Positions 440 through 15,289 of a stretch of 64,000 nt of DNA are shown in pieces. This stretch comes from Waterburya sp. (lineage in GTDB: Bacteria > Cyanobacteriota > Cyanobacteriia > Cyanobacteriales > Xenococcaceae). The stretch is taken from positions 1,792,001 through 1,856,000 of the forward strand of contig CBDCJV010000002.1 of assembly GCA_965217895.1 (NCBI GenBank), read 5' to 3'. The notes under the pieces are model-generated. The model was not told the origin of the DNA. It worked only from the letters and a program-made list of their open reading frames with translations, and did no database searches. The position numbers and the translations under genes were made by a program. Position 1 is the stretch's first letter, and every line of letters starts with the position of its first letter.

Positions 440-1408
440 CTAACGGCTTATTTCAATTCCTCTAGACCTTAGCTGCTGCATAAAAAATTCTTCTAGAGAA
501 GGCCTTGCTTGATGAATACTAACTAACTGAGCTTCCAAATTATCCAGATTGGATACAAATTGATTTGGCTCAACTTTTAATTGACCATGCCAACGATTAT
601 TTTCATGGGTCAAATTAGTCATCCAGGGAGCTAAAGTTTCCGAACTTCCCCCAGTTACAATTGCCTGATAGGCATTACTAGTACCTAATAGTTCATCAAG
701 AGATCCCTGGCAAATTAACTCTCCCAGAGCAAGGAAGGCAATGCGATCGCAAATTTGCTCAATATCAGACAGGACATGGGAATTAAAAAAGATAGTTTTA
801 CCCTGTTGTTTAAGAGACAAAACAATTTCCCGCATTCGATAGCGTCCCATAGGATCTAATCCTGACATCGGCTCATCCAAAAACACAATTTCAGGATCGT
901 TAATCAAAGCCTGTGCCATGCCTACTCTTTGCAGCATACCTTTAGAATACTGCTTTAGTTTCTTTTTACGGGCTGTAGACTTAGCTAAACCGACTAAATC
1001 TAGTAATTCAGCAATACGTTGACGCTGAATTTTTCGTGGAATTTGGAATAACCCAGCAATAAATTCTAAAAACTCCCAGGCGGTGAGAAAATCGTAAAGA
1101 AAGGCGTTTTCGGGTAAGTAACCAATCTTTTGCTTAACAGTGCGATCGCCAATTGGTTTTCCTAAAATCACTGCCCTGCCTGTAGTTGGACGGGTAATTC
1201 CTAATAAAGTTTTGAGCAGCGTTGTTTTTCCTGCCCCATTAGGACCAAGTAAACCAAACGTTTCTCCTTGATGAATACTCAAAGAACAATTTTTTAGCGA
1301 TTCTATTTTTTGATTCATCCAAAAGCCAGTACGATAAACCTTGCCCAAATTCCAGGTTTGTACCACTGAAAGAGAATCATTAGGGGAAATTGTAGAAGGC
1401 ATAAACAA
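440..1408 (-). CDS. ABC-2 type transporter ATP-binding protein
   Basis: Walker A GPNGAGKT, signature YSKGM, Walker B FLDEP, H-loop NSH. Confidence 0.9.
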   Translation of the reverse strand: MFMPSTISPNDSLSVVQTWNLGKVYRTGFWMNQKIESLKNCSLSIHQGETFGLLGPNGAGKTTLLKTLLGITRPTTGRAVILGKPIGDRTVKQKIGYLPENAFLYDFLTAWEFLEFIAGLFQIPRKIQRQRIAELLDLVGLAKSTARKKKLKQYSKGMLQRVGMAQALINDPEIVFLDEPMSGLDPMGRYRMREIVLSLKQQGKTIFFNSHVLSDIEQICDRIAFLALGELICQGSLDELLGTSNAYQAIVTGGSSETLAPWMTNLTHENNRWHGQLKVEPNQFVSNLDNLEAQLVSIHQARPSLEEFFMQQLRSRGIEISR

Positions 1409-1618: not shown

Positions 1619-2761
1619 ATGAATATTTTGTTTGTAATCACCAGGGCTGATGTTATTAGAGGAGTGCAAGTTCATGTAAAAGGTTTAGCCGTTGCTTTAC
1701 AACAAGACCAACACAAAGTTTTAGTTCTTACAGGAAAAAAAGGGGCATATAACAAAGATCTTAGAGAAGCTAGAATCGAGTCAATTGCCTATAAATTCTT
1801 ACAGCGGAAAATTAATCCGTTTAGAGATGGCAAAAGTTTACGTTACATTCTGTACATAATTGATTTGTTTAAGCCAGACTTAATCGCTGCCCATTCAAGC
1901 AAAGCTGGTATCTTAGGTCGTATAGCAGGAAAAATGAGCAAAGTTCCTTGTATTTTTACGGCTCATGGTTGGTCATTTACTCCTGGCATTGGTGAGCCTA
2001 ATCGTACTATTTACCGATGGGTAGAAAAATTAATTGTTCCTTTAGCGACTAAAGTGATTTGCGTTTCTGAGTTTGATCGTCAAATTGGCTTAGAAGCGGG
2101 GCTTAATCCCCAAAAGTTGTTAACCGTTCATAACGGCATGAAAGATATTGTTTCCAAGTTGAGGTCTAACCCTGGTCAAGTTGGTTCAGTTAACATTGCC
2201 AGAGACGACGACGACGAATTAGATTCGTCATCCCTGGTGGTTAAAATAGCCATGGTTGCTCGTTTTGATCGACAAAAAGACCAATTAATCTTAATTAAAG
2301 CTTGTCATGGTCTTAATGTAGAGCTAATTTTAGTGGGTGACGGTGTTAATTTAGCTAAAGCTCGCCAACAAGTAGAGCAGTTAAAAATGCAAGATCGGGT
2401 CAAGTTTTTAGGCTTTCGTAAAGATATAGCCGAAATTTTGGCACGAGTACAAATTTTGACCTTAATTTCTAATTGGGAAGGGTTGCCCTGTACGATCATT
2501 GAGGCAATGCGCGCTGGTTTACCCGTCATAGCCTCCGATGTAGTTGGTGTCAAAGAAATTGTCATTGAAAATGAAACAGGCTATTTGATTTCTGACAACG
2601 ACCCTGACATTCTGCGTCAGAAGTTATCCTATTTAATCGATAATAGCCAGATAAGAACTCGTATGGGAAAATTAGCCCGTCAAAGATATGAGTCTCAACT
2701 AACGTTTAAACATATGTATGATAAGACCTTGGCAATATATCAAGATGCCGTAGCTCAATAG
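1619..2761 (+). CDS. Glycosyltransferase family 4 (GT-B)
   Basis: HSSKAG, FTAHGW, VARFDRQKDQ and EGLPCTIIEAM (EX7E) motifs. Confidence 0.9.
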   Translation: MNILFVITRADVIRGVQVHVKGLAVALQQDQHKVLVLTGKKGAYNKDLREARIESIAYKFLQRKINPFRDGKSLRYILYIIDLFKPDLIAAHSSKAGILGRIAGKMSKVPCIFTAHGWSFTPGIGEPNRTIYRWVEKLIVPLATKVICVSEFDRQIGLEAGLNPQKLLTVHNGMKDIVSKLRSNPGQVGSVNIARDDDDELDSSSLVVKIAMVARFDRQKDQLILIKACHGLNVELILVGDGVNLAKARQQVEQLKMQDRVKFLGFRKDIAEILARVQILTLISNWEGLPCTIIEAMRAGLPVIASDVVGVKEIVIENETGYLISDNDPDILRQKLSYLIDNSQIRTRMGKLARQRYESQLTFKHMYDKTLAIYQDAVAQ

Positions 2762-2794: not shown

Positions 2795-3925
2795 GTGAAA
2801 CAGCCAATCCTATTATCTACGCCTCATATTGGTGAACTTGAGCTAAAGTTTGTCCAGGAAGCTTTTGATACTAATTGGGTAGCACCCGTCGGTTCAAATA
2901 TAGATGCTTTTGAACAAGAATTTTCCCAAGCAGTTGGCTCACAGTCTGCTGCTGCCTTATCTTCTGGAACAGCAGCTTTGCATTTAGCCCTCAAGTTAGT
3001 CGGAGTTGAAGCTGGTGACGAGGTATTTTGTTCGACGTTCACTTTTGTGGCTAGTGCCAGTCCAATTATCTATTTAGGAGCTAAACCAGTATTCATTGAC
3101 AGCGATCGCCTTTCTTGGAATATGGATCCTAATTTGCTAGAAACCGCCTTAGCCAAAAGAGACAAACTGGGAAAATTGCCCAAGGCAGTAGTGGTAGTGC
3201 ATCTTTATGGTCAGAGTGCCGACATTGAGCCAATCTTGGCAATATGCGATCGCTATGATATTCCCTTAGTTGAAGATGCAGCAGAAGCCTTGGGAGCAAC
3301 TTATAAAAATACCTCTCCTGGCACTTGGGGTAAAGCGGGAATTTTCTCTTTCAATGGTAATAAAATTATTACCACTTCTGGAGGTGGGATGTTAGTTTCT
3401 GACGATGCAGACTTAATTCAAAAAGCCAAATTTTTAGCAACCCAGGCAAGAGATCCTCAACCTCACTATGAACATACCGAGATCGGTTTTAATTATCGAT
3501 TAAGCAACATTTCGGCAGGTATTGGTAGAGGACAATTAGCAGTATTAAAAGATAGAGTTGCTGCTCGTAGACGAAATTTTGCAGTTTATCAACAGAATTT
3601 AGCAGATTTGCCAGGAATTAAATTTATGCCCGAAGCAAATTTTGGTACAAGTATACGCTGGCTTAGTTGTTTAACAATTGATCCTGAAATTTCAGGCACG
3701 GATCGAGAACAAATACGTCTACAATTGCTAGACAAACAGATAGAAACTAGACCAGTTTGGAAGCCAATGCACCTCCAGCCGATATTTGCAGATTGTGAAT
3801 GTATTAATAATGGAGTAGCCGAAGAACTATTTCAACAAGGTTTGTGCTTACCTTCTGGCTCTAACCTAACTGAGTCAGACCTTGAACGAGTAATTACTGA
3901 AGTTAAAAGTATGTTTGCCTCTTGA
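2795..3925 (+). CDS. DegT/DnrJ/EryC1/StrS (PglE/EpsN-like) PLP-dependent sugar aminotransferase
   Basis: SSGTAALHLAL, EDAAEALG, SFNGNKIITTSGGG (PLP lysine), CLPSGS. Confidence 0.92.
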   Translation: MKQPILLSTPHIGELELKFVQEAFDTNWVAPVGSNIDAFEQEFSQAVGSQSAAALSSGTAALHLALKLVGVEAGDEVFCSTFTFVASASPIIYLGAKPVFIDSDRLSWNMDPNLLETALAKRDKLGKLPKAVVVVHLYGQSADIEPILAICDRYDIPLVEDAAEALGATYKNTSPGTWGKAGIFSFNGNKIITTSGGGMLVSDDADLIQKAKFLATQARDPQPHYEHTEIGFNYRLSNISAGIGRGQLAVLKDRVAARRRNFAVYQQNLADLPGIKFMPEANFGTSIRWLSCLTIDPEISGTDREQIRLQLLDKQIETRPVWKPMHLQPIFADCECINNGVAEELFQQGLCLPSGSNLTESDLERVITEVKSMFAS

Positions 3926-4034: not shown

Positions 4035-6644
4035 ATGAACCCCCCACAAACGTCTTTAGATAATCAACAGTATTGGCAGATGATAAAAAGGCGTTGGCTG
4101 CCTGGGTCAATTGTTTTTTTAATCATATTAACTTTGGGTATTGTTGCGACTACTCTAAAGAAAAACTTTTATGAGGCTGAAGCAAGGCTTAAATTTAAAG
4201 GTAACACCGTTAGCTCTTCTTTGACAGAGGTTAGTAAAGCTTTAGAGGGCTTCTCACCAATTGCAGAGAAAGGAAATCCTATTGACACAGAAGCAGAGGT
4301 TTTACGTTCGGTTCCCTTGATTAGCAAAACTATTAACGATCCTAAGCTTCAGTTGAAAGATGCTGATGGCAAAAAGCTCAAAGTTGAAGATTTTCTAGAA
4401 AAATTAAAAGTTTCCTCGATAACTGCTACAGATATTCTCAAGATTTCCTATGCTAGTCAGAATCCAGAGCAAGCTGCCTTAGTGGTTAACACTTTGGTCA
4501 AAAATTATTTAGGTAATAATTTAATAGTTAATAAAGCTGAAGCAGTTTCAGCTAGAGAGTTTTTGCAAGAACAACTACCGAAGGCAGAAGATTCTCTACG
4601 CAAAACTGAAACAAAAATACGGGAATTAAAAGAATCAAATGGATTTGTCTCTCCTGATGAAAATACTAGCTCCTTAATTCAGGGAATGCAGCAGCTACAG
4701 GCAGAAATAGCCCAAACTCGTGGAGAAATGGCTAATGCTGAATCTCAAGCTGACTATATTAAAAAAAAGCTGGGTTTGACCGCAGAACAGGCGGTGGCTC
4801 TAACTACAATTAGCCAATCTCCAGCAATTAAAGAGACGATATCTAAACTGCAAAATGCAGAATCCGCTCTGGCGATCGCCAGAGCGCGTTTTACAGATAA
4901 TAGTCCGAATGTAGTTGAACTACAACAGCAGGTAGATTCACTGTCAAAATTACTCAATCGACAAACCGCTTCTGTTGGCGGAGAGACAGCAAGAGATCTG
5001 GTAGAAAAGAATAAGACAGGTGTAATTCAAGAAGAACTTACCACCGAGCTAATTCAGCTCGAAGCTCGAAAATCTGGTCTGCAAAAGCAAATTGACAGCT
5101 TAAGCCAGGTTGAGGGCGATCGCCGTGCGAGAATCCAGAAAGTACCAGAGCTAGAGCAAAAGTTAAGTCAGCTTGAAAGACAGCAAACTTCGTATCAGTC
5201 AACCTACGATGTTTTGTGGAAACAGCTACAAACTATAAAAATTGCTGAAGTTCAAGATCCTGGAAACGTTAGGGTGATTTCTAATGCCGTTGTTCCCGAT
5301 CAGCCAGTCTCTTCTCGTGCAGTAGGCTTTTTAGCTGCTGGCTCTCTAGCCTTATTATCCGCAGCTGGAGTTATTTATCTTTTAGAAATTAGTGATAAAT
5401 CAATTAAAACCATTGACGAAGCCAAACAACTATATGGTTATACCTCTTTAGGGATAATTCCAGGCACAGACAGAATCAAACTATTGACTTTACCAGAATT
5501 AGAAGATCGAGATCCCTCCATTCCTAAATTAATAGTCCGAGACTATCCTTCTTTAGCACTCAGTGAGTCCTATCGGATGTTGCAGTCTAATATTAAGTCT
5601 CTAAAGACTGATAGAAAGGTAAAAACTATTGTCATTACAAGTTCTAGCGTGCAGGAAGGCAAATCAACAATAGCTGCCAACTTAGCAGCAGCAATGGCTC
5701 AAGTAGGCAATAGAGTTTTATTGGTTGATGCTAATTTACATAATCCTATTCAAGATCGTATTTGGAATACTTATAGCGACAATGGCTTAAGTAATGTAAT
5801 TACCGATCACTTAGATCCCAAAATGACTATTAATGAAGTAATGCCAAATTTAGACTTGCTTACTTCAGGAAGTTTAAATCCCTCTCCTGCAACTTTACTA
5901 GATTCTCAAAGAATGAGAATGTTGATCGATTACTGGTCAGAAAGCTATGACTTTGTAATTTTTGATACTCCTTCTTTAGATTTAACTGCCGATGCTCCAA
6001 TCATGGGTCGTATGGCTGACGGAGTGTTGTTAGTAGTTAGACCTGGTTTAGTAGAGCGATCGCAGGCAAAATTCACCAAAGAAATTTTAGAGCAATCAGG
6101 ACTCAATATGTTAGGAATTGTCTTTAATGGAGTTGAGCCTCAATTTGATTCACGCTTTTACTACTACAATGCTTTTGAAGAGCCGCCAGCTATACTGTCC
6201 CATAACAAACTTTCAAGCATTAGCCCGATAGAAAATGAAGAGCTTTGGGATACTATTTCTTCTATGGCAATAGAGTCCAAAAAAGATAGATTAGGTGCCA
6301 ACCTTGACGCAGATCAGCTGCTATTAGCACCATTGGATAAGCTAGAGTCAATGGTATTTCATTTACAGCAAGATCTAGCAGATTTAAGTAGAGTGGTCAA
6401 AGAACAAGAAGAAGAACTTTTATTGCAGCGTCAGAAAGTCAAAAAATTGCAACGACAAGCTAATGTCTCTCATGAAAATGAACTTTTCTATTCAGAAAAT
6501 CAATTAAATCAGGAGCAAGAACGAAAACGTATGCTGGATGAAACTCTTGTAGGACAAAGGAGAAACCTGGAAAAACGTCGAGAAATGCTTTTCCAGTATC
6601 AGCAAGTGCTAGAAAGCAGAAAAAATGCTAGTTTTCGAGTCTAG
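4035..6644 (+). CDS. GumC/Wzc polysaccharide co-polymerase / BY-kinase with an extra HmpF-like C-terminal coiled coil
   Basis: N-terminal TM, periplasmic coiled coil, second TM, Walker A-like EGKS, VDAN, FDTP, Tyr cluster FYYYN, then about 150 additional aa. Confidence 0.88.
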   Translation: MNPPQTSLDNQQYWQMIKRRWLPGSIVFLIILTLGIVATTLKKNFYEAEARLKFKGNTVSSSLTEVSKALEGFSPIAEKGNPIDTEAEVLRSVPLISKTINDPKLQLKDADGKKLKVEDFLEKLKVSSITATDILKISYASQNPEQAALVVNTLVKNYLGNNLIVNKAEAVSAREFLQEQLPKAEDSLRKTETKIRELKESNGFVSPDENTSSLIQGMQQLQAEIAQTRGEMANAESQADYIKKKLGLTAEQAVALTTISQSPAIKETISKLQNAESALAIARARFTDNSPNVVELQQQVDSLSKLLNRQTASVGGETARDLVEKNKTGVIQEELTTELIQLEARKSGLQKQIDSLSQVEGDRRARIQKVPELEQKLSQLERQQTSYQSTYDVLWKQLQTIKIAEVQDPGNVRVISNAVVPDQPVSSRAVGFLAAGSLALLSAAGVIYLLEISDKSIKTIDEAKQLYGYTSLGIIPGTDRIKLLTLPELEDRDPSIPKLIVRDYPSLALSESYRMLQSNIKSLKTDRKVKTIVITSSSVQEGKSTIAANLAAAMAQVGNRVLLVDANLHNPIQDRIWNTYSDNGLSNVITDHLDPKMTINEVMPNLDLLTSGSLNPSPATLLDSQRMRMLIDYWSESYDFVIFDTPSLDLTADAPIMGRMADGVLLVVRPGLVERSQAKFTKEILEQSGLNMLGIVFNGVEPQFDSRFYYYNAFEEPPAILSHNKLSSISPIENEELWDTISSMAIESKKDRLGANLDADQLLLAPLDKLESMVFHLQQDLADLSRVVKEQEEELLLQRQKVKKLQRQANVSHENELFYSENQLNQEQERKRMLDETLVGQRRNLEKRREMLFQYQQVLESRKNASFRV

Positions 6645-6668: not shown

Positions 6669-7892
6669 CTATAAATAAAACTCCGTTTTGGCGATCGCCA
6701 CAGCTTTTAATTCAAAGATTTTTTCAATTACGTCAGCCACAACTTTATCAGGGGTAGAAGCACCTGAAGTTATTCCTACGGTAATTTCCCCTTCTGGTAG
6801 CCAGTTTTCGGCTACGGTAATTTCTCGCTCTAAAGGCTTATGTTCTAAGCGATCGCGACTTAGAATACGCTCAACGCAGTCAATATGATAAGAGGGTATA
6901 TTATGCTCAACAGCAATTTCTTGTAGATGAGTAGTATTAGAAGAATTAAACCCCCCAATCACAATCATTAAAGACAAGTTTTCTTCAACCAAATCAAACA
7001 TGGCATCTTGCCTTTCTTGAGTCGCATCGCAGATAGTATTAAAGCTCATAAAATGCTGCGTTAACTCAGTTGGACCATACTTTTTCAGCATTGTTTGCTC
7101 TAAAAGCCTACCAATTTGCTCTGTTTCACTTTTGAGCATCGTAGTTTGATTAGCGATACCAACTCTAACCAAATCTCGGTTAGGATCGAAACCATCAGAA
7201 TAAGCGTTTTTAAACTTAGTTAAAAATTCATGGCGATCGCCGCCATGAAGAATATAGTTAGTCACATATTCAGCCTCTGCTAAATTTAAGACAACTAGAT
7301 AGCGATCGGCAAACGAACTTGTCGCCACAGTTTCCTCATGAGCATATTTGCCATGAATAATTGAAGTGTAGTCCCGTTTTTTATGCTTTTCTACCGAATT
7401 CCAAACTTTTGATACCCAAGGACAGGTAGTATCAACAATAGTGCAGCTTTTATCATTCAGTAGCTGCATCTCCGAAACACTTGCACCAAAAGCAGGTAGA
7501 ATAACCACGTCTGTTTGACCAACAACGCTAAAATCTTTTTCACCATCAACTAATTCAATAAAGTCAACGTTCATTTCTCTCAGACGTTGATTAACTGAAG
7601 GATTGTGAATAATCTCGTTGGTAATCCAAATTTTTTCGCTGGGGAAATGCTGGCGAGTTTCGTAAGCCATAGCCACGGCTCTTTCTACTCCCCAACAAAA
7701 GCCAAAAGATTCGGCTAGAAGAATAGTAACATCTCCTTTTTGTAGACGATAGTTGCGATCGCGAATGGTTTGAATTAAATCACTTTGATACTCCGTATTC
7801 ATTGTTCCAGCTACTTCTTCATCGTGTCCAAATCCTCGACGATGATAGTTTTGGGACTGTTGCAAAGAACGTTTAAAAGCTTTAGTATCCAT
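6669..7892 (-). CDS. ispH: 4-hydroxy-3-methylbut-2-enyl diphosphate reductase
   Basis: [39 protein letters not shown]. Confidence 0.97.
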
Positions 7893-7971
7893 TTTTATAT
7901 CAGTCTATTTTTAAATAAAAGTGATTGTATCTATATTAAATCCAATTCAGGTAGGTTACTTAACTTTTAGA

Positions 7972-8012
7972 TAGTTTGTAGTAAGTAGTTTTTCACTACT
8001 AACTACAAACTA
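7972..8012. repeat. Palindrome built from heptamer (STRR-like) units; possible terminator
   Basis: TAGTTTGTAGTAAGTAGT-loop-ACTACTAACTACAAACTA, one mismatch in the stem. Confidence 0.6.
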
Positions 8013-8040
8013 ATAGATAACTGTTAAATTGGCTTAGTGC

Positions 8041-8931
8041 TTAAAAAATTGCTGCTAGATCAGTTTGCTTGAGAAAATCAATAAATGCCCAGACTGCATG
8101 GGATAAATCTGCGTCTTTAGGAGTAGCCATAACCACAATGCGCTGTAAGGGTTTAGGAAGCTGGCATACAGTTACACCCTGGGGAATATGAAATACAGAT
8201 AGCTGAGGTAAAATGGCTGCACCCGAACCTGCTGCTACTAAATTGATGATTGTGTCACTTTCTCGAACTTGTTCTGATGGTAGAAACTGGTAATTTTCAG
8301 CTTCAAAGTAGCTTTTAATTTGTCTAAAACAGGTATTTTGATTCGGATAAGAAATAATCGGCAAAGCTAATAACTCTGTCCAGCTAATTTTACTCATCTT
8401 AACCAGGGAAAATTTATTAGATGGTAGCAAGACAATATAATCATCTCGCAATACTTCTCTAACTTCGAGTTCTTTAGCGGTGGGTAAAATAGTAAAACCG
8501 AGGTCGGCTTTGCCTGACCATACCATTTGTTCTACTTGGGGACAGTCTTTTTCTTCCGTGATTTTAATCTCGATCTGAGGATATTTAATTTTAAAGCGGG
8601 CTTTTATTTTGGGCAATAATTGAGATGCTGCACCACGAAAAGCCGAAATTCTAACCGTACCTCCCTCAAGGCTTTTATAGCGATTGGCTTCTTGCTTAAT
8701 ATCTTCAACTGATTTTAAAATGCGATCGCAATGAGCTAAAACGCTTTCACCAACAGGGGTAAGATTGACACCTTTTTGGCTTCTAAACAGTAACTGTACC
8801 CCCAAATCATTTTCCAAAGTTGCGATCGCATGACTCACCGTAGGCTGAGTTAAATCTAACTCCATCGCTGCCTGACTAAATTTGCCACATTTAGCTACTG
8901 CCACAAACGACCTGATTTGAGAAAGTTTCAT
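8041..8931 (-). CDS. LysR-family transcriptional regulator
   Basis: N-terminal HTH FSQAAMELDLTQPTVSHAIATLE...LLFRS plus a substrate-binding domain. Confidence 0.93.
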   Translation of the reverse strand: MKLSQIRSFVAVAKCGKFSQAAMELDLTQPTVSHAIATLENDLGVQLLFRSQKGVNLTPVGESVLAHCDRILKSVEDIKQEANRYKSLEGGTVRISAFRGAASQLLPKIKARFKIKYPQIEIKITEEKDCPQVEQMVWSGKADLGFTILPTAKELEVREVLRDDYIVLLPSNKFSLVKMSKISWTELLALPIISYPNQNTCFRQIKSYFEAENYQFLPSEQVRESDTIINLVAAGSGAAILPQLSVFHIPQGVTVCQLPKPLQRIVVMATPKDADLSHAVWAFIDFLKQTDLAAIF

Positions 8932-8961
8932 GTCTTATATCCAGATCACTATCTTTGCCAA

Positions 8962-10386
8962 TTAATCACTCTTCCAAGTACCATGAAAACTATGGGGAAT
9001 TACAGATGGCAAAGCAAGACGACACACAGGCGGTTCAAAAAGGCGATCGCTTTGATAAATTCTGACTTCACTTTGATTTATATTGCCGTCAAATACAATG
9101 GTTATTAACCAACCATGTTCTGAATCATCTTGACGCGAAACCAAAATTGGTTCAGAAGGATAACAATTATCGCCCATATCGGCGATCGCCATATTACTAG
9201 TTTGACGATCAAAACAGGCGATCGCCTGAAATAATTCTTGACCAGATTTTACGCCGTAACGATGGACGTTTAAATAGGTATAACGCCAATCTTGTCCTAT
9301 CTTTGATGGTGCAACTAGGGGAAATTCTCCCGCAGCATTGGATATTTGCTTGTTGCTAATCACCTCGGCAGTTTGAGGATCGATAGTCAGTGACCATAAA
9401 GTTCCTTTAGAGGGAGTTTCGGTGTAGCCAGATGCTACTTCTTTTAAATACTGATTAGTGTCAAAGTTTTCAAAGCGAGTAAATTCAGTGACAATATTTC
9501 CTTCATTGTTGACATAGCCGTTGGCAAAGTGCCACTGAAACCAGGGATCGGTTTTACCCTGACTGACTAAAGATAAATCGTCTTTGGCAAAAATTAAAAT
9601 CTCTGTACCTAATTCGGGCTTCCATTCAAGGGAATCACTATAGCTTTTTTGTCCTAGGGCAACAAGGACAAGATTGACTCTTACAGGAGAAACCAAAAAG
9701 ACTAAATACTCACCTGCCAAACAAAAATCATGGATCAAAGGCAGTCCAGACAGAGTGTGAGAAGTTTGCTGCTCAAGTTTACCCGTAGAGTCGCAACGAT
9801 AAAGATTGAGAGTGCTGTTTGCTCCTCCACGAACTCCGTGATTAAATATTTTGCCTGTCACGGGGTCAACTTTTGGGTGTGCCGAAAAGGGCTGCTTTTC
9901 TCCTAAGCCAGATAGAGTATCTGTGCCAATAGTAGCCAAAGTATCTAAATCTAAAGCATGAGGCTTACCACCTTCCCAAAGAGCCAATAAACGGTCTGAT
10001 AATGCCAAAACTGATGTATTGGCAGCATTTTTAAGTGGCTTAAACCAATTATTCCAAAATGCACCTGCTGCCGTCATGCCATAGTTAGGATAAATAAAGG
10101 CATTTTCTTTTTGCTCGTCCACATATCCTGCGGTTTGTACATAACGATACATCCCTGTTACTCCAGAATCAGTAAAATCGACCTTGAGAATAGCTCCATC
10201 GCCGTCAAACCAATGCCCAACTTTTTGTTCGCTTCTAGATAGCCTAGCAGGACCGTTACGGTATAAAGTACCTTTTAGGTCGGTAGGAATTTCTCCTTCA
10301 ATGATTGATAGAGAAGTAGAATCAAATTCCGTAGCGGGTGTGGCGATCGCTTTTGACCAAGCTTTTTGTTTAGATGAGGTGATCAT
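8962..10386 (-). CDS. Carotenoid oxygenase / lignostilbene dioxygenase family (RPE65-like)
   Basis: YRNGP, HWFDGDG, SAHPK, IHDF, HFAN, EP, HSFHGTW iron-ligand motifs. Confidence 0.92.
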   Translation of the reverse strand: MITSSKQKAWSKAIATPATEFDSTSLSIIEGEIPTDLKGTLYRNGPARLSRSEQKVGHWFDGDGAILKVDFTDSGVTGMYRYVQTAGYVDEQKENAFIYPNYGMTAAGAFWNNWFKPLKNAANTSVLALSDRLLALWEGGKPHALDLDTLATIGTDTLSGLGEKQPFSAHPKVDPVTGKIFNHGVRGGANSTLNLYRCDSTGKLEQQTSHTLSGLPLIHDFCLAGEYLVFLVSPVRVNLVLVALGQKSYSDSLEWKPELGTEILIFAKDDLSLVSQGKTDPWFQWHFANGYVNNEGNIVTEFTRFENFDTNQYLKEVASGYTETPSKGTLWSLTIDPQTAEVISNKQISNAAGEFPLVAPSKIGQDWRYTYLNVHRYGVKSGQELFQAIACFDRQTSNMAIADMGDNCYPSEPILVSRQDDSEHGWLITIVFDGNINQSEVRIYQSDRLFEPPVCRLALPSVIPHSFHGTWKSD

Positions 10387-10525
10387 TAGCTGCTTTTATG
10401 TTTTTATAACTAATTCAAAAGGTGTAGACCAGCGGACAACGGTATACTATCAATGATAACGTTAAAAATTGTATAAGCTCTAAGTGTAGTTTGAGATTAG
10501 CTTAATCTAAATATCATATACAAAC

Positions 10526-11644
10526 ATGAACTCAGGAATCGATTTACAAGGAAGTTTTGTTCAAACTCTACAAGATTTTGGTCTTTCGGCTGGTTTAGCT
10601 AAAGCTGTTTGGCTACCTTTGCCTATGATCTTAATGATAATCGGCGCAACAGTGGGAGTTTTGGTAGTTGTCTGGCTTGAACGAAAAATCTCTGCTGCTG
10701 CCCAGCAAAGAATAGGACCTGAATATGCAGGACCTTTAGGAGTATTACAACCAGTCGCCGACGGAATTAAATTAGTTTTTAAAGAAGATGTTATTCCTGC
10801 TAAAGCCGACCCTTGGTTATTTACCATAGGACCAATATTAGTAGTTATTCCCGTGTTTTTGTCCTATCTTATTGTTCCTTTTGGACAAAACCTAGTGGTT
10901 ACAGATCTAAATGTGGGTATTTTTATCTGGATTTCTTTATCTAGTATTGCCCCGATTGGCTTATTGATGGCTGGTTATGCTTCCAACAACAAGTATTCAC
11001 TATTAGGGGGCTTGAGAGCAGCAGCACAGTCAATTAGCTATGAAATTCCTTTAGCTTTATCCGTACTAGCGATCGTTATGATGTCTAATAGTCTTAGTAC
11101 AATAGATATTGTAAATCAGCAGGCAGGCTATGGTATTTTAGGCTGGAATATCTGGAGACAACCCGTAGGTTTTATTATCTTTTGGATTGCAGCCTTAGCT
11201 GAGTGTGAACGTCTACCTTTCGATTTACCCGAAGCAGAAGAAGAATTGGTTGCTGGATATCAAACCGAATATTCAGGCATGAAGTTTGCTCTCTTTTATC
11301 TAGGCTCTTACGTTAACTTGGTCTTATCCGCCTTGGTTTTTGCTGTTCTCTATTTAGGTGGGTGGGAATTTTTTATTCCTTTGGATCATCTAGCAGATTG
11401 GATTGGGGTTGCAGACACTACTCCCTGGCTACAGGTATTGACTGCTTCTTTGGGTATTATCATGACCTTAGTTAAAGCATACTTCCTAGTATTTATCGCC
11501 ATCTTGTTGCGCTGGACTGTACCTCGTGTGCGTATTGACCAATTATTAGACCTAGGTTGGAAATTTTTATTACCAGTTTCTCTTGCTAATCTCTTGATTA
11601 CTGCTGCTTTAAAATTGTCTTTTCCCGTAGCATTCGGTGGTTAG
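10526..11644 (+). CDS. ndhA: NDH-1 subunit 1
   Basis: [37 protein letters not shown]. Confidence 0.98.
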
Positions 11645-11682
11645 TTAAACTAAAAATAATGGAGTAAAGCCAGCTAAAAATT

Positions 11683-12300
11683 ATGTTTAAAGTTCTCAAG
11701 CAAGTACAGGATTACGCCAATGAAAGTTGGCAAGCAGCAAAGTATATTGGTCAAGGTCTTTCTGTTACTTTCGACCATATGCAGCGTCGTCCCGTTACAG
11801 TTCAGTACCCTTACGAAAAATTAGTCCCTTCCGAACGCTATCGCGGTAGAATTCACTTTGAATTTGATAAATGTATTGCCTGTGAGGTTTGCGTTCGTGT
11901 CTGTCCGATCAACCTTCCTGTAGTTGATTGGGAGTTTGATAAAAAAGCCAAGAAGAAAAAGCTCGATCACTACAGCATTGACTTTGGGGTATGTATTTTC
12001 TGCGGTAACTGCGTCGAATACTGCCCTACTAACTGTCTTTCTATGACCGAAGAGTATGAACTAGCATCCTACGATCGCCACGAGCTTAACTATGATAATG
12101 TTGCTTTAGGACGATTGCCCTATAAAGTCACTCAAGATCCGATGGTAACTCCTCTTAAAGAGTTCGCTTACCTACCAAAAGGCGAAGTTGACCCTCATGG
12201 TTTACCTAAAGGAGCGCAACGGGCTGGCAAACGCCCAGATGAGATTTTGGCAGAAATTAAAGCAGCCAAACCTAAAGAAGAAGCAAAAACTGATAGCTAA
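11683..12300 (+). CDS. ndhI: NDH-1 subunit I (2x4Fe-4S)
   Basis: [12 protein letters not shown] and [12 protein letters not shown]. Confidence 0.98.
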
Positions 12301-12367
12301 TAGCTGATAGCTACCTTAACCAAGGTTATTCAACACAATCATTTAACTTAAAAAAGAGGAGAAAAAA

Positions 12368-12985
12368 GTGAATTTAGCTGAAGGAGTGCAGATAGTTTCT
12401 TTTGGCATCTTGGCAGTAATGATGATCGGGACAGCTTTAGGAGTTGTTCTTTTGCCCAAAATTGTTCATTCTGCTTTTTTGCTGGCTGGGGTGTTTATTA
12501 GCATTGCTGGTTTATATATCCTGCTAAATGCCGATTTTGTAGCTGCTGCTCAAATTTTGGTTTATGTAGGCGCGGTAAACGTTTTAATCTTGTTCGCTAT
12601 CATGCTAGTAAATAAACAAGAAGACTATGCCGAACTTCCTGGTCGTTTAATTCGTAAAATAGCCACAGCCGTAGTTTGCTTTGGCTTGTTTGCGCTTTTG
12701 GGAACAATGGTTTTGGTAACTCCTTGGTCATTAGATACTACTTCTCCACCCGTAACGGATACGGTTGTAGCTTTAGGTGAGCATTTCTTTAGTGATTATT
12801 TGTTGCCTTTTGAGCTTGCTTCAGTCTTGTTGTTGATGGCTATGGTGGGGGCAATTATCCTGGCTCGTCGTGACTTAATTCCTGAATCTTTGGTAACAAA
12901 AGAAAGTATAACAACTAGCTTGACCTTACCTGAGCGTCCCCGTGAATTGGCTACCCTTAGTGGCGATCGCAACAAACAAAAATAA
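12368..12985 (+). CDS. ndhG: NDH-1 subunit 6
   Basis: AQILVYVGAVNVLILFAIML; PFELASVLLL; operon position. Confidence 0.97.
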   Translation: MNLAEGVQIVSFGILAVMMIGTALGVVLLPKIVHSAFLLAGVFISIAGLYILLNADFVAAAQILVYVGAVNVLILFAIMLVNKQEDYAELPGRLIRKIATAVVCFGLFALLGTMVLVTPWSLDTTSPPVTDTVVALGEHFFSDYLLPFELASVLLLMAMVGAIILARRDLIPESLVTKESITTSLTLPERPRELATLSGDRNKQK

Positions 12986-13084
12986 TACTCTCAATCATTT
13001 ATTAAGAAGATGCGAACAGCCGTTAGTCCGTACATCAATAATCAGTTCCATCTTCATGGGATAACATAATTAGTAATTAAAGCA

Positions 13085-13390
13085 ATGCAGTTAGAATATT
13101 TTTTGGGACTGGCAGCAGCCTTGTTTTGTATAGGCATTTATGGTTTGATTACCAGCCGTAATGCGGTAAGAGTTTTGATGTCAATTGAATTAATGCTTAA
13201 TGCCGTTAATCTAAATTTAGTGGGATTCTCTAACTATTTAGACCCCAGCAACATTAAAGGTCAGGTATTTTCAGTATTTGTCATCACGGTAGCAGCAGCA
13301 GAAGCTGCGGTTGGCTTGGCAATTGTGCTGGCTATTTATCGCAATCGTGATACGATCGACATGGAGCAATTTAATTTGCTTAAATGGTAG
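13085..13390 (+). CDS. ndhE: NDH-1 subunit 4L
   Basis: [30 protein letters not shown]. Confidence 0.97.
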
Positions 13391-13583
13391 TTTTTAAAGC
13401 TTTTTCTTGTCAGAAATTGCTCCGCCACGTCCGATATGAACGCCTGGGATTTCGCCAGGCGATACGGACTCATAAACGGACTGGTCTATCTTTGACATAG
13501 AATAGAGTTAGAATTAGTTGAAGTGCTATTATTTTTTCATGAAGACCTATTTGTTCAAAATAGTTTTTCTGTTAATTTGATTG

Positions 13584-13656
13584 GGGCGCGTGGCTCAGTG
13601 GATAGAGCAACAGGTTCCGGTCCTGTAGGTCAGAGGTTCGAGTCCTCTCGCGCTCA
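13584..13656 (+). tRNA. tRNA-Arg(CCG); CCA not encoded
   Basis: Cloverleaf: GGGCGCG/CGCGCTC acceptor stem, anticodon arm ACAGG-TTCCGGT-CCTGT, T arm AGAGG-TTCGAGT-CCTCT. Confidence 0.97.
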
Positions 13657-13820
13657 TTAAGTAAAAGCAATATACCAAAAGGGTTGTAGAGAAGGTACTG
13701 TTTTTTGCAACTCTTTCTTTTCAGGGCTTGATACCAGTTAAAATTTGTCTGGATATTTTGGTAGGATTGAAACTTATATTTACTAAAAAACTAATGTTCA
13801 ATCAGTTCGGGGCATTGCAG

Positions 13821-13990
13821 TTATACTAAATCCGATTTACAACACGGGAGTGGAATATGCTTTTTAACCAAAAGCATTTCCTCCCGTCAAAACCTACTTT
13901 TAAATTAGAAATTCAGAACGGGATTAAAACCATCTGGCATCTGCCTTCACACAACTTTTAAATGATGTATTTCAATAGGATTTGGTATTA
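13821..13990. mobile_element. MITE-like element with imperfect ATACCAAATCC-type terminal inverted repeats
   Basis: Left end TTATACTAAATCCGATT; right end reverse complement TAATACCAAATCCTATT; no ORF inside. Confidence 0.5.
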
Positions 13991-15289
13991 TTACTGACCA
14001 CCACTGCTAACAAAAAAAGTAGCAATAATCCCCCCAGCCAGCCAAATATAAGATAAGATAGCTAGCCAATACAGTAGCGTTTCAGTAAATCCTTGTTTGC
14101 CTCCACCAGGATCGTGTCCACTATGACCTTCGTGTTCTTGATGTTCTTGATGCTGATGTTGCTGGTGCTGTTTTTTTTGCTTTTTACCACTTCCAAAACG
14201 CAACCATGCTAGGACTCCTGTAGCTGCTAAAAATATCAAATTAAGCCAGAAGGTATAGTCGATCGCAAAACGTTCGGTTGACTGAGGGCTGTTACCTGCT
14301 GCACTTTTGGGTAAAACACCAAACAAAGAAAAGCCATAGTGCATCAAAATTGCCGTTGCTACCAAGGCTGCAAAAAATACACCTACAATATATAAAGCAA
14401 CCTTCCAACCATAATATTTAGCATTGACGCGAATTACGGGGAACACGACCAAATCGCTAAAAATAAAAGCCATTACCCCTGCAAAGCTAACGCCGTTGTT
14501 AAATAGAATTGCAGCCAGGGGGATATTACCCATCGAACCAATAAAGGTAAAAAAGGCTGCTATTGGTCCGACGACTGCATTTTCTAAAACGGCAAAAAAG
14601 CTAGGATTTTGCGTACCCGCACCTATAAATAGAGTCTGGAAAAAAGAACGAGGTACAAATGCCGCAATAACCCCTGCTATAGTAAAGCCAAAGGTTACAT
14701 CTTTCCAGACCATACCCCATTCCATAAAGTATTTTTTGGCTACCTGTTGCCATCCCTTTTTGCTGGTAATTTTGTCTTTCCAGTCAGGGGCGTTTTTGTC
14801 CTGTTTGTTTTCTCCTTCTTGTTCGTTTAAGCGTCTTCTAGCTTTTCTGATTAACTCTTTAGGACGAGTGTAGTTAACAATTAGCCAGGTAAAAAGGATT
14901 AAGAAAATTCCACCGAGATATTCACCGACGACAAATTGCCAGCCTAAGAAGATAGCGATAATAAAGCCAAGTTCGATTACGAGATTGGTTGAAGCTAATA
15001 AAAAAGCCAGAGAAGGAACAAATCCCGCACCTTTTTTGAATAAAGATTTGGTGGTAGATAAAGCTGCAAAGCTACAGGAACTAGAGAGAAAACCAAAGAA
15101 AGTGCCGATCGCAATACTTTTTTTGCCCGCTTTTCCCATAGTTTTCTGCATTCGTTCGCGAGTAACAAATACCTGGATCGCACTACTGATAATATAGCCC
15201 ACAACAAATGCCCATAACGCCTTCCAAAAGAAGCTTAGGGAGGTTAATACAGCATCACTATATAGTTGCCAAAAATTAGCGTCATTCAT
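13991..15289 (-). CDS. UPF0718/ArsP-like permease with a His-rich loop; probable metal transporter
   Basis: SSSCSFAA, LASTNLVIELG, FIGSMGNIPLA motifs; HQQHQHQEHQEHEGHSGH. Confidence 0.8.
   Translation of the reverse strand: MNDANFWQLYSDAVLTSLSFFWKALWAFVVGYIISSAIQVFVTRERMQKTMGKAGKKSIAIGTFFGFLSSSCSFAALSTTKSLFKKGAGFVPSLAFLLASTNLVIELGFIIAIFLGWQFVVGEYLGGIFLILFTWLIVNYTRPKELIRKARRRLNEQEGENKQDKNAPDWKDKITSKKGWQQVAKKYFMEWGMVWKDVTFGFTIAGVIAAFVPRSFFQTLFIGAGTQNPSFFAVLENAVVGPIAAFFTFIGSMGNIPLAAILFNNGVSFAGVMAFIFSDLVVFPVIRVNAKYYGWKVALYIVGVFFAALVATAILMHYGFSLFGVLPKSAAGNSPQSTERFAIDYTFWLNLIFLAATGVLAWLRFGSGKKQKKQHQQHQHQEHQEHEGHSGHDPGGGKQGFTETLLYWLAILSYIWLAGGIIATFFVSSGGQ

Follow-up and report, generated by a model that had tools for sequence, protein, structure and literature searches.

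The HmpF proteins of cyanobacteria interact with themselves and with one another and co-purify with PilB, and one homolog forms sheets in vitro (PMC7002697; papers are cited throughout by PMC number). HmpF has Hfq and PilT as binding partners, relocates to the leading pole and marks it (PMC11407516, PMC12288463), and oscillates in the unicellular Synechocystis (PMC12422006). Its localisation needs the Hmp/Tax3 system and is lost with carbonyl cyanide m-chlorophenyl hydrazone (CCCP) (PMC9239167, PMC12422006). Pilus activity and polysaccharide output are coupled or co-regulated (PMC9239167, PMC7690835). HmpF is said to have no characterised domains (PMC11407516), and both its docking on pilus motors and the coupling of pili to polysaccharide are described as unresolved (PMC12288463, PMC9239167). 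The second relevant group is the bacterial tyrosine kinases (BY-kinases), with the motifs Walker A′ hhhhDxDxR and Walker B hhhhDxxP; the second Walker A′ aspartate is proposed to recognise the tyrosine substrate (PMC9800525). Described here is a 64,000 nucleotide stretch of Waterburya sp. DNA (contig CBDCJV010000002.1, positions 1,792,001 to 1,856,000; the window), in which a gene at positions 4035-6644 encodes an 869 amino acid (aa) polysaccharide co-polymerase of class 2a (PCP-2a) of the Wzc type, with a C-terminal tail homologous to the centre of HmpF. No description of an HmpF-Wzc fusion was found in the literature searched, which does not extend to most subscription papers, both primary papers on HmpF among them. 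The available sections of a phylum-wide PCP survey make no mention of the tail, and its supplementary alignment may contain such proteins (PMC4594306).

The protein continues for 157 aa beyond a short tyrosine cluster, FYYYN at aa 708-712. This agrees with the initial annotation of the stretch, made from the letters alone, which had put the extension at about 150 aa and had linked it to HmpF by motifs that are indeed present, among them QEEEL and LVGQRR of the conserved HmpF central block. The NCBIfam profile for HmpF, NF038350, matches aa 734-865 at profile positions 307-438 of 553 (E 1.1e-31, 110 bits). The score falls under the whole-protein cut-off of 200 bits, which is expected because the tail is only part of HmpF. 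Composition-adjusted BLASTP of the tail against the HmpF of the same genome shows 44 identical positions out of 99 (44%, E 9e-19). Against a hidden Markov model (HMM) built from full-length HmpF, the real segment scores 102.4 bits and its reversed sequence 4.2, with maxima of 8.1 bits among plain shuffles (996 scored of 1000) and 13.0 bits among 1000 heptad-preserving shuffles. An HMM of the module derived from HmpF alone exceeds 15 bits for only two of the 5319 reading frames of at least 100 aa in the genome, namely hmpF (142) and the 4035-6644 gene (89). The match is not an artefact of coiled-coil structure or composition, and the proposed relationship to HmpF is borne out. It should be noted that the block had been assigned to the C-terminal half of HmpF; it is in fact the centre, about aa 324-431 of the 571 aa copy in this genome, and by conservation it ranks among the top two helical stretches of HmpF. 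In 47 aligned rows not labelled as HmpF, near-invariant HmpF residues are retained at frequencies of 0.98 (E792, E794, L834 and G840) and 1.00 (Q841).

The remainder of the protein is that of a Wzc. GNVR is above cut-off in a profile search, Wzz is below it (E 0.002), and TIGR01007 scores 164.5 bits against a cut-off of 108. Two predicted transmembrane (TM) helices flank a periplasmic Wzz/GNVR coiled region, which fits PCP-2a, and from the established topology of such proteins everything C-terminal of TM helix 2 is predicted to be cytoplasmic. Foldseek with the model of the kinase fold has CapAB, Etk, BceF and Wzc as its top matches. The protein is filed here as a PCP-2a variant, neither an HmpF nor a proven kinase. 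The term “polysaccharide kinase” used at first is replaced by co-polymerase with a BY-kinase fold, as the kinase motifs are eroded and kinase activity is doubtful. None of the eight other Wzc-like proteins of the genome has an HmpF-type tail.

Kinase motifs were counted in 95 fusions of the family and in 35 tail-less Wzc proteins. The Walker A GK[ST] lysine, K543, is present here and retained in 94 of the 95 fusions, and both the Walker A′ residue D565 and the Walker B residue D644 are retained in all 95. Walker A′ position D567 is N here and in 67/95 fusions, and R569 is H here and in 92/95; each of these two positions is retained in 32 of the 35 tail-less proteins. The final residue of Walker B, P647, is S in this protein and S or A in 92 of the fusions, versus P in 27 of the tail-less set. 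The 4035-6644 protein thus does not match the Walker A′ and Walker B consensus of active BY-kinases. In the O-motif ExxRxxR, E511 (95/95) and R514 (94/95) are kept and the third position is Q, the third R being absent from the tail-less paralogs as well. Tyrosines in aa 700-733 number from 0 to 5 across the 95 fusions, with one or none in 32, and the mean count after the last strand is 2.2 in 25 tailed Wzc versus 3.9 in the 35 tail-less ones. Judged from these motifs, the kinase-fold domain probably binds ATP and probably has weak autokinase activity. However, the erosion is a trait of the subfamily and no proof that the tail replaced the kinase, since most tailed rows share descent and a tail-less relative, L098, has two of the changes (R to H and P to S).

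An AlphaFold2 model of aa 456-869, with a mean predicted local distance difference test score (pLDDT) of 82, displays the BY-kinase fold, a linker, a short helix and two long helices at aa 767-811 and 814-868 (pLDDT 77-91). The linker region, aa 704-752, is below 50. The model of HmpF has a matching short helix and hairpin at aa 326-429, between long coiled helices. The module is predicted to fold as an antiparallel helical hairpin of about 107 aa. Covariation over 331 module copies (effective depth 189) favours the hairpin, 17 of the top 30 pairs having i+j of 1614-1634; the signs of a possible second register are too faint to be taken for an intermolecular contact. No homolog of the module was found among solved structures (best E 0.015, generic coils), Foldseek with the HmpF model gave only generic coiled-coil matches (template-modelling score at most 0.32), and a search of the ESM Atlas gave no usable match.

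The fusion is widespread in its lineage. A homolog search with the fusion protein was assessed for the best 120 of 142 homologs, of which 111 are Wzc proteins carrying PF28019, the sole family found on the HmpF proteins in the same set; the fusion architecture is already visible in automatic Pfam annotation. Named fusion homologs in this set are from Pleurocapsa, Chondrocystis, Waterburya, Stanieria and Hyellaceae, and by inference from these names the lineage is Pleurocapsales. A survey of Wzc orthologues for the tail, as the initial annotation had suggested, covered 61 genomes of the family. In 43 of them, some assembled in one or two contigs, the fusion is full-length (a reading frame of 859 aa or more), and seven of nine genera have it. 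Elsewhere in the family, three copies are cut by contig ends and one is frameshifted near aa 310. At L155 and L156 (genomes G038 and G048) deletions took the aminotransferase gene and nearly the whole Wzc gene, and the last 50-60 codons of the tail are left. A 310 aa internally deleted Wzc (L064:4911-5843 of G060; P0137) has lost the kinase domain and retains the tail, and an 865 aa Wzc (L111:1036-3633 of G186) has a different, long acidic C-terminal extension without an HmpF match.

Across 95 full-length fusions the tail core, with a mean column conservation of 0.79, is close to the kinase domain (0.82), and the linker reaches 0.39, the mean top-residue frequency over aa 717-733. Pairwise ratios of nonsynonymous to synonymous substitution rates (dN/dS), from pairs that share members and so are not independent, are 0.06-0.35 for the tail (aa 734-865) in 11 of 14 pairs, three being saturated, 0.05-0.24 for the kinase domain in 13 of 14 pairs, and 0.13-1.1 for the linker. 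For modules of other lineages, values of 0.01-0.26 are found in five of seven pairs, and two are saturated. The tail is under purifying selection, and the modules are likewise in four lineages. The two objections foreseen at the start, that the similarity might reflect coiled-coil composition or that the tail might be an accident free of selection, do not describe this protein, as the homology survives the composition controls and the tail is selected.

The same block is found on other proteins. A class-wide sample has extra matches in 12 of 399 other genomes; 11 of these genomes belong to family f53, and the match in the other is probably a split hmpF. Within f53, 17 of 48 genomes have extra copies, and 10 such proteins from nine genomes are confirmed Wzc fusions. 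Named records with the fusion include Acaryochloris marina MBIC11017 and Altericista sp. CCNU0014. In other genomes of the order the block occurs as a short stand-alone copy (G070), at the N-terminus of DevB/HlyD-type adaptors (G067, G100) and, in G239 and G253, as stand-alone copies and at the C-terminus of an AcrB-type permease and of a different Wzc subfamily; 3 of the 17 genomes in the family of G239 and G253 have extra copies. Genome G253 has three (an RND permease at L055:2418-6014, a Wzc at L056:3679-6228 and a single-TM protein at L059:4691-5404) and G239 has two (L057:4846-5349 and L058:4579-5292). In G305 two tandem full-length hmpF copies lie within the hmp locus (L063:3478-7254). 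A metagenome-assembled genome of Hydrococcus, which also has a normal hmpF, bears N-terminal copies of the block on two proteins, a Wzc and a DevB-type adaptor. This Wzc (L137:3432-6089) is of another subfamily and has the Walker A lysine replaced; the adaptor (L149) is 618 aa long.

From 1.84 billion proteins, 150 representatives were obtained, which by a rough classification are 106 HmpF-like proteins or fragments, 22 Wzc, 6 adaptors, 2 tetratricopeptide repeat (TPR) proteins and 14 others; two of the 150, P0145 and P0242, are probably chimeras and were excluded. Double-module TPM-domain membrane proteins are among them, and P0240 is a rotamase fusion bearing the block. When the DevB-borne module P0255 was used as the query for homologs, no more than two proteins were obtained. 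Genome G638 has the block on a rotamase (L088:5478-6983) and as a stand-alone copy (L089:2776-3417); P0153 has it doubled on a TPM-domain membrane protein, P0231 and P0193 have it on a family of ~270 aa, and P0232 and P0224 on TPR membrane proteins. The borders of the block are nearly equal across carriers, i.e., Wzc, DevB- and RND-type adaptors, AcrB-type permease, rotamase, TPM and TPR proteins. It is N-terminal on the DevB- and RND-type adaptors and C-terminal on the AcrB-type permease, and none of the 13 membrane carriers scanned has it between predicted TM helices, the block always being placed ahead of the first or behind the last.

Several of these fusions appear to be independent. In a 60-row tree of Wzc bodies the tail label needs six changes and a single clade is rejected (approximately unbiased (AU) test, p 5e-5). 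In a 64-row tree, one row of which (N_L152) is a wrongly picked ATP-binding cassette (ABC) protein, it needs eight changes, five of them forced by strong branches. The module tree rejects a single clade for all fused modules (AU p 9e-4, with L088 and P0240 labelled as rotamase fusions) and for the Wzc-borne modules (AU p 2e-10). G253 offers the clearest case: its RND and Wzc tails group with the HmpF of that genome (support 100/99, and 99/98 under a mixture model). The Pleurocapsales Wzc tails form one clade (100/99). The Wzc bodies of Pleurocapsales and f53 are sisters (support 84) and their modules give no resolved relation; one f53 fusion genome, G580, shares neighbouring sugar genes with the Pleurocapsales fusion loci. 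The idea that the Wzc body and the tail always travel together was rejected by tail-less orthologs in the tree. From these trees, the block seems to have been gained at least three to four times. The count is held to this minimum, without a precise figure, because the alignment has few columns and long branches come together in places.

Coordinates of the fusion gene, its parts and its upstream neighbours are in Table 1. The gene is not in the hmp locus; its neighbours are the GT4 and DegT genes and an ispH-like gene. Of 21 family loci, 12 have the DegT-type aminotransferase gene immediately upstream of the fusion gene, one of them as a 99 aa remnant. An ABC ATP-binding gene lies further upstream in the window (440-1408), in an ordinary neighbourhood. 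Downstream, at 6669-15289, are ispH-like, LysR-like, carotenoid-oxygenase-like, ndhA/I/G/E-like and permease genes. A promoter scan scored 10, below the shuffle level of 14.7. A full-length hmpF exists elsewhere in the genome: its one intact copy (571 aa, C2:656342-658057) is far from the fusion gene, and is divergent from genes that, by sequence recognition, are presumably cheY-, cheW- and MCP-like. The genome also has PilB, two PilT-like ATPases and a cyanobacterial Hfq, which was missed by Pfam PF17209, as was also that of the S. elongatus control, and found by PF21979. The genome's only Wza and the tail-less Wzc next to it (G000:C2:1912257-1926400; L162, L128) are about 10 kb from the pilT-pilB-grpE-like cluster, which may be chance. 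Next to f53 fusions are a 948 aa PseB/PglF-type dehydratase fused to an EAL domain (L090:1945-4791, L092:1255-4101) and a DegT aminotransferase with an N-terminal MshE-related motif that binds cyclic di-GMP (c-di-GMP) (L093:2784-4433).

Table 1. Features of the fusion gene and its upstream neighbours (window coordinates).
Feature	Position	Strand	Basis
GT4-type glycosyltransferase, same small cluster	1619..2761	+	all family matches below cut-off; synteny
DegT/LegC-type sugar aminotransferase, usual upstream neighbour of fusion gene	2795..3925	+	family search
Wzc/PCP-2a polysaccharide co-polymerase with C-terminal HmpF-derived hairpin (predicted), 869 aa	4035..6644	+	Wzz, GNVR, AAA_31; TIGR01005, TIGR01007; NF038350
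Predicted TM helix 1, aa 22-40	4098..4154	+	hydropathy scan
Predicted TM helix 2, aa 432-450	5328..5384	+	hydropathy scan
BY-kinase-fold domain, aa 511-711	5565..6167	+	TIGR01007, Foldseek, motif counts
Short tyrosine cluster, aa 708-712, three Tyr, internal	6156..6170	+	sequence; varies among orthologs
Linker, aa 713-733, poorly conserved, predicted disordered	6171..6233	+	conservation, pLDDT, dN/dS
HmpF-homologous tail, aa 734-865	6234..6629	+	NF038350 E 1.1e-31
Core mobile module, aa 757-863: short helix and predicted antiparallel coiled-coil hairpin	6303..6623	+	conservation, structure model

The role that fits best is that of a docking tag, by which the tail would tie the Wzc export ring, on its cytoplasmic side, to the HmpF-marked type IV pilus patch. 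It is preferred because the module is derived from HmpF, is under selection, retains the invariant residues and is predicted to sit, by way of a flexible tether, at the cytoplasmic ends of exporters; the presence of hmpF with its che genes, PilB, PilT-like ATPases and Hfq in the genome also speaks for it. Our confidence in it is nonetheless slightly short of even. Each subunit of the Wzc ring would present one hairpin, and these hairpins may pair with the hairpin of HmpF itself, or may bind its motor partner, Hfq or PilT. Wzy-type polysaccharide would then be released where pili are active, e.g., in motile or settling baeocytes. As the eroded Walker A′ motif and the short tyrosine cluster suggest weak autokinase cycling, part of the control may have passed to position or to the binding of a partner. 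The initial proposal that the tail could recruit an exopolysaccharide export machine to the pilus pole gains support from the repeated grafting of one HmpF block onto export proteins. A wider proposal, possible but more doubtful than the docking role itself, is that the central hairpin of HmpF is a portable pilus-patch address tag that has been copied from the organism's own hmpF several times onto the cytoplasmic ends of secretion machines. If this is true, polysaccharide and other exports would follow the light-steered side of the cell, and the fusions would map the functional core of HmpF and supply a tag of about 107 aa for steering secretion.

A number of observations weigh against these proposals. 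Extra copies of the block are rare outside a few lineages: more than one match was found in 6 of 366 other genomes of the order, in a scan that scored at most 10 candidates per genome. The rotamase, TPM and stand-alone carriers are not exporters. Within the family, 12 of the 61 genomes are without a second copy of the HmpF block, two have a remnant and one is frameshifted. Two single-genome genera without the fusion (G015, G016) have a tail-less ortholog behind the same aminotransferase gene, and a further tail-less ortholog is in G244; thus the tail is dispensable for the basic job of the subfamily. The search for tail-less orthologs covered G015, G016 and four others of the tail-less genomes of the family; in those four the best Wzc matches are at most 36% identical, and those placed in the tree grouped with other paralogs. 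The module tree is built on just 107-108 columns, and many of its forks are left open. No mapping of the region of HmpF that binds Hfq, PilT or HmpF itself was found in the literature searched.

The genomic setting also counts against a role in motility slime. The Wzc of the N. punctiforme hormogonium polysaccharide shares its locus with crtB, wza and wzy (PMC12188702), and a tie of the fusion gene to such a locus was looked for and not found. Only the GT4 and DegT genes adjoin the fusion gene, with no wza beside it (Wzy and Wzx were not searched for), and the genome's single Wza, next to a tail-less Wzc, is at a distance of about 115 kb. The genome has no CrtB over the cut-off (23.5 bits versus 300), and the nearest tail-less relatives are in no recognisable crtB-type locus. 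A role in motility slime is thus hypothetical.

Among other explanations, it is conceivable, though unlikely, that the hairpin associates with itself and braces ring machines (the Wzc octamer, adaptor rings, the RND trimer) without any link to pili; in the 4035-6644 Wzc it would stand in for the eroded phosphorylation cycle by keeping the ring closed. Most carriers are from oligomer-forming families, and the self-interaction and sheets reported for HmpF homologs (PMC7002697) point the same way, as do the D567N, R569H and P647S/A changes of the family fusions and their fewer tyrosines. Yet any coiled coil would do for this purpose, and the donor is always the HmpF block with its charged and glycine positions kept. 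A copy that pairs with itself should, moreover, pair with HmpF too, and the H and S changes are independent of the tail, since they are also in tail-less L098.

Less probable again is that the hairpin, anchored in the membrane, sequesters HmpF or the motor partner of HmpF, and that synthesis of the exporter thereby stops pili during settling and sheath building. Pleurocapsales baeocytes have a motile, then sessile cycle. Conserved stand-alone or single-TM copies without an export domain (L057, L058/L059 with dN/dS 0.04, and L089) are consistent with such a trap, and so is the kinase-less, internally deleted Wzc L064, which retains the tail. However, a trap does not need fusion to exporters, and most carriers found are exporters.

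About as improbable, or slightly more so, is that the hairpin is read by Hmp/Tax3 response regulators or by membrane potential and gates export without moving the exporter. This would agree with the dependence of HmpF localisation on Hmp/Tax3 and its loss with CCCP (PMC9239167, PMC12422006), with the high conservation of the block within HmpF, and with the c-di-GMP modules on neighbouring sugar enzymes in the second family, which show regulatory grafting in such clusters. However, the predicted disordered linker of ~45 aa suits a tether better than an allosteric switch, and no regulator binding is mapped to the block in the literature searched. A neutral accident, read-through or assembly chimera, for which the chimeric look of P0145 and P0242 and the loss or breakage of the gene in some relatives could be cited, is highly improbable and already refuted by the dN/dS values in four lineages, the near-equal conservation of tail core and kinase domain, and the intact copies in 43 of 61 genomes, seven genera and assemblies of 1-2 contigs.

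The docking tag, although tentative, can be approached by experiment. Repeated natural grafting marks one HmpF block of about 107 aa with a short list of near-invariant residues, so that HmpF docking and pilus-polysaccharide coupling are thereby open to simple truncation, point-mutant and fusion experiments. Natural pairs are supplied by orthologs that have or lack the tail and follow the same neighbour gene, and cultured strains with the fusion include Stanieria cyanosphaera PCC 7437, Pleurocapsa sp. PCC 7319 and Acaryochloris marina MBIC11017. Even if the pilus link fails, a mobile domain on cyanobacterial exporters, undescribed in the literature searched, is left.

In comparison with known systems, the protein resembles E. 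coli Wzc, S. aureus CapAB and Synechocystis Sll0923 in its two predicted TM helices, long periplasmic coiled region, GNVR domain and P-loop kinase fold (Foldseek E 8e-21 to CapA1B1 and 8e-18 to Wzc), and its gene, like those of PCP-2a BY-kinases, has glycosyltransferase and aminotransferase neighbours. Unlike Sll0923, which ends in a Y-rich stretch of 25 aa (PMC6562117), it has the 157 residues past the tyrosine cluster, and it differs from PCP-2a BY-kinases in having DxNxH for the Walker A′ DxDxR, S at the end of Walker B DxxP, Q at the third O-motif position and three tyrosines. With HmpF (that of N. punctiforme, Synechocystis Slr1301, S. elongatus Synpcc7942_1139) it shares the central block and the same predicted short helix and hairpin; the tail covers about 130 of 553 profile positions, without the N-terminal beta domain or the long flanking coils of HmpF, and is membrane-anchored. 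The physical route proposed here, from HmpF-activated motors to polysaccharide output, is like the DnaK1/DnaJ3 link of N. punctiforme (PMC9239167). However, that link is a chaperone recruited in trans, whereas here the link would be a domain fused into the exporter, and the polymer need not be hormogonium polysaccharide. S. pneumoniae CpsD, positioned at the division site (PMC4574921), is likewise a BY-kinase capsule machine at a defined cell site; for the fusion the site proposed is a pilus patch rather than the division site, and no fused HmpF-like domain is reported for CpsD in the sections available.

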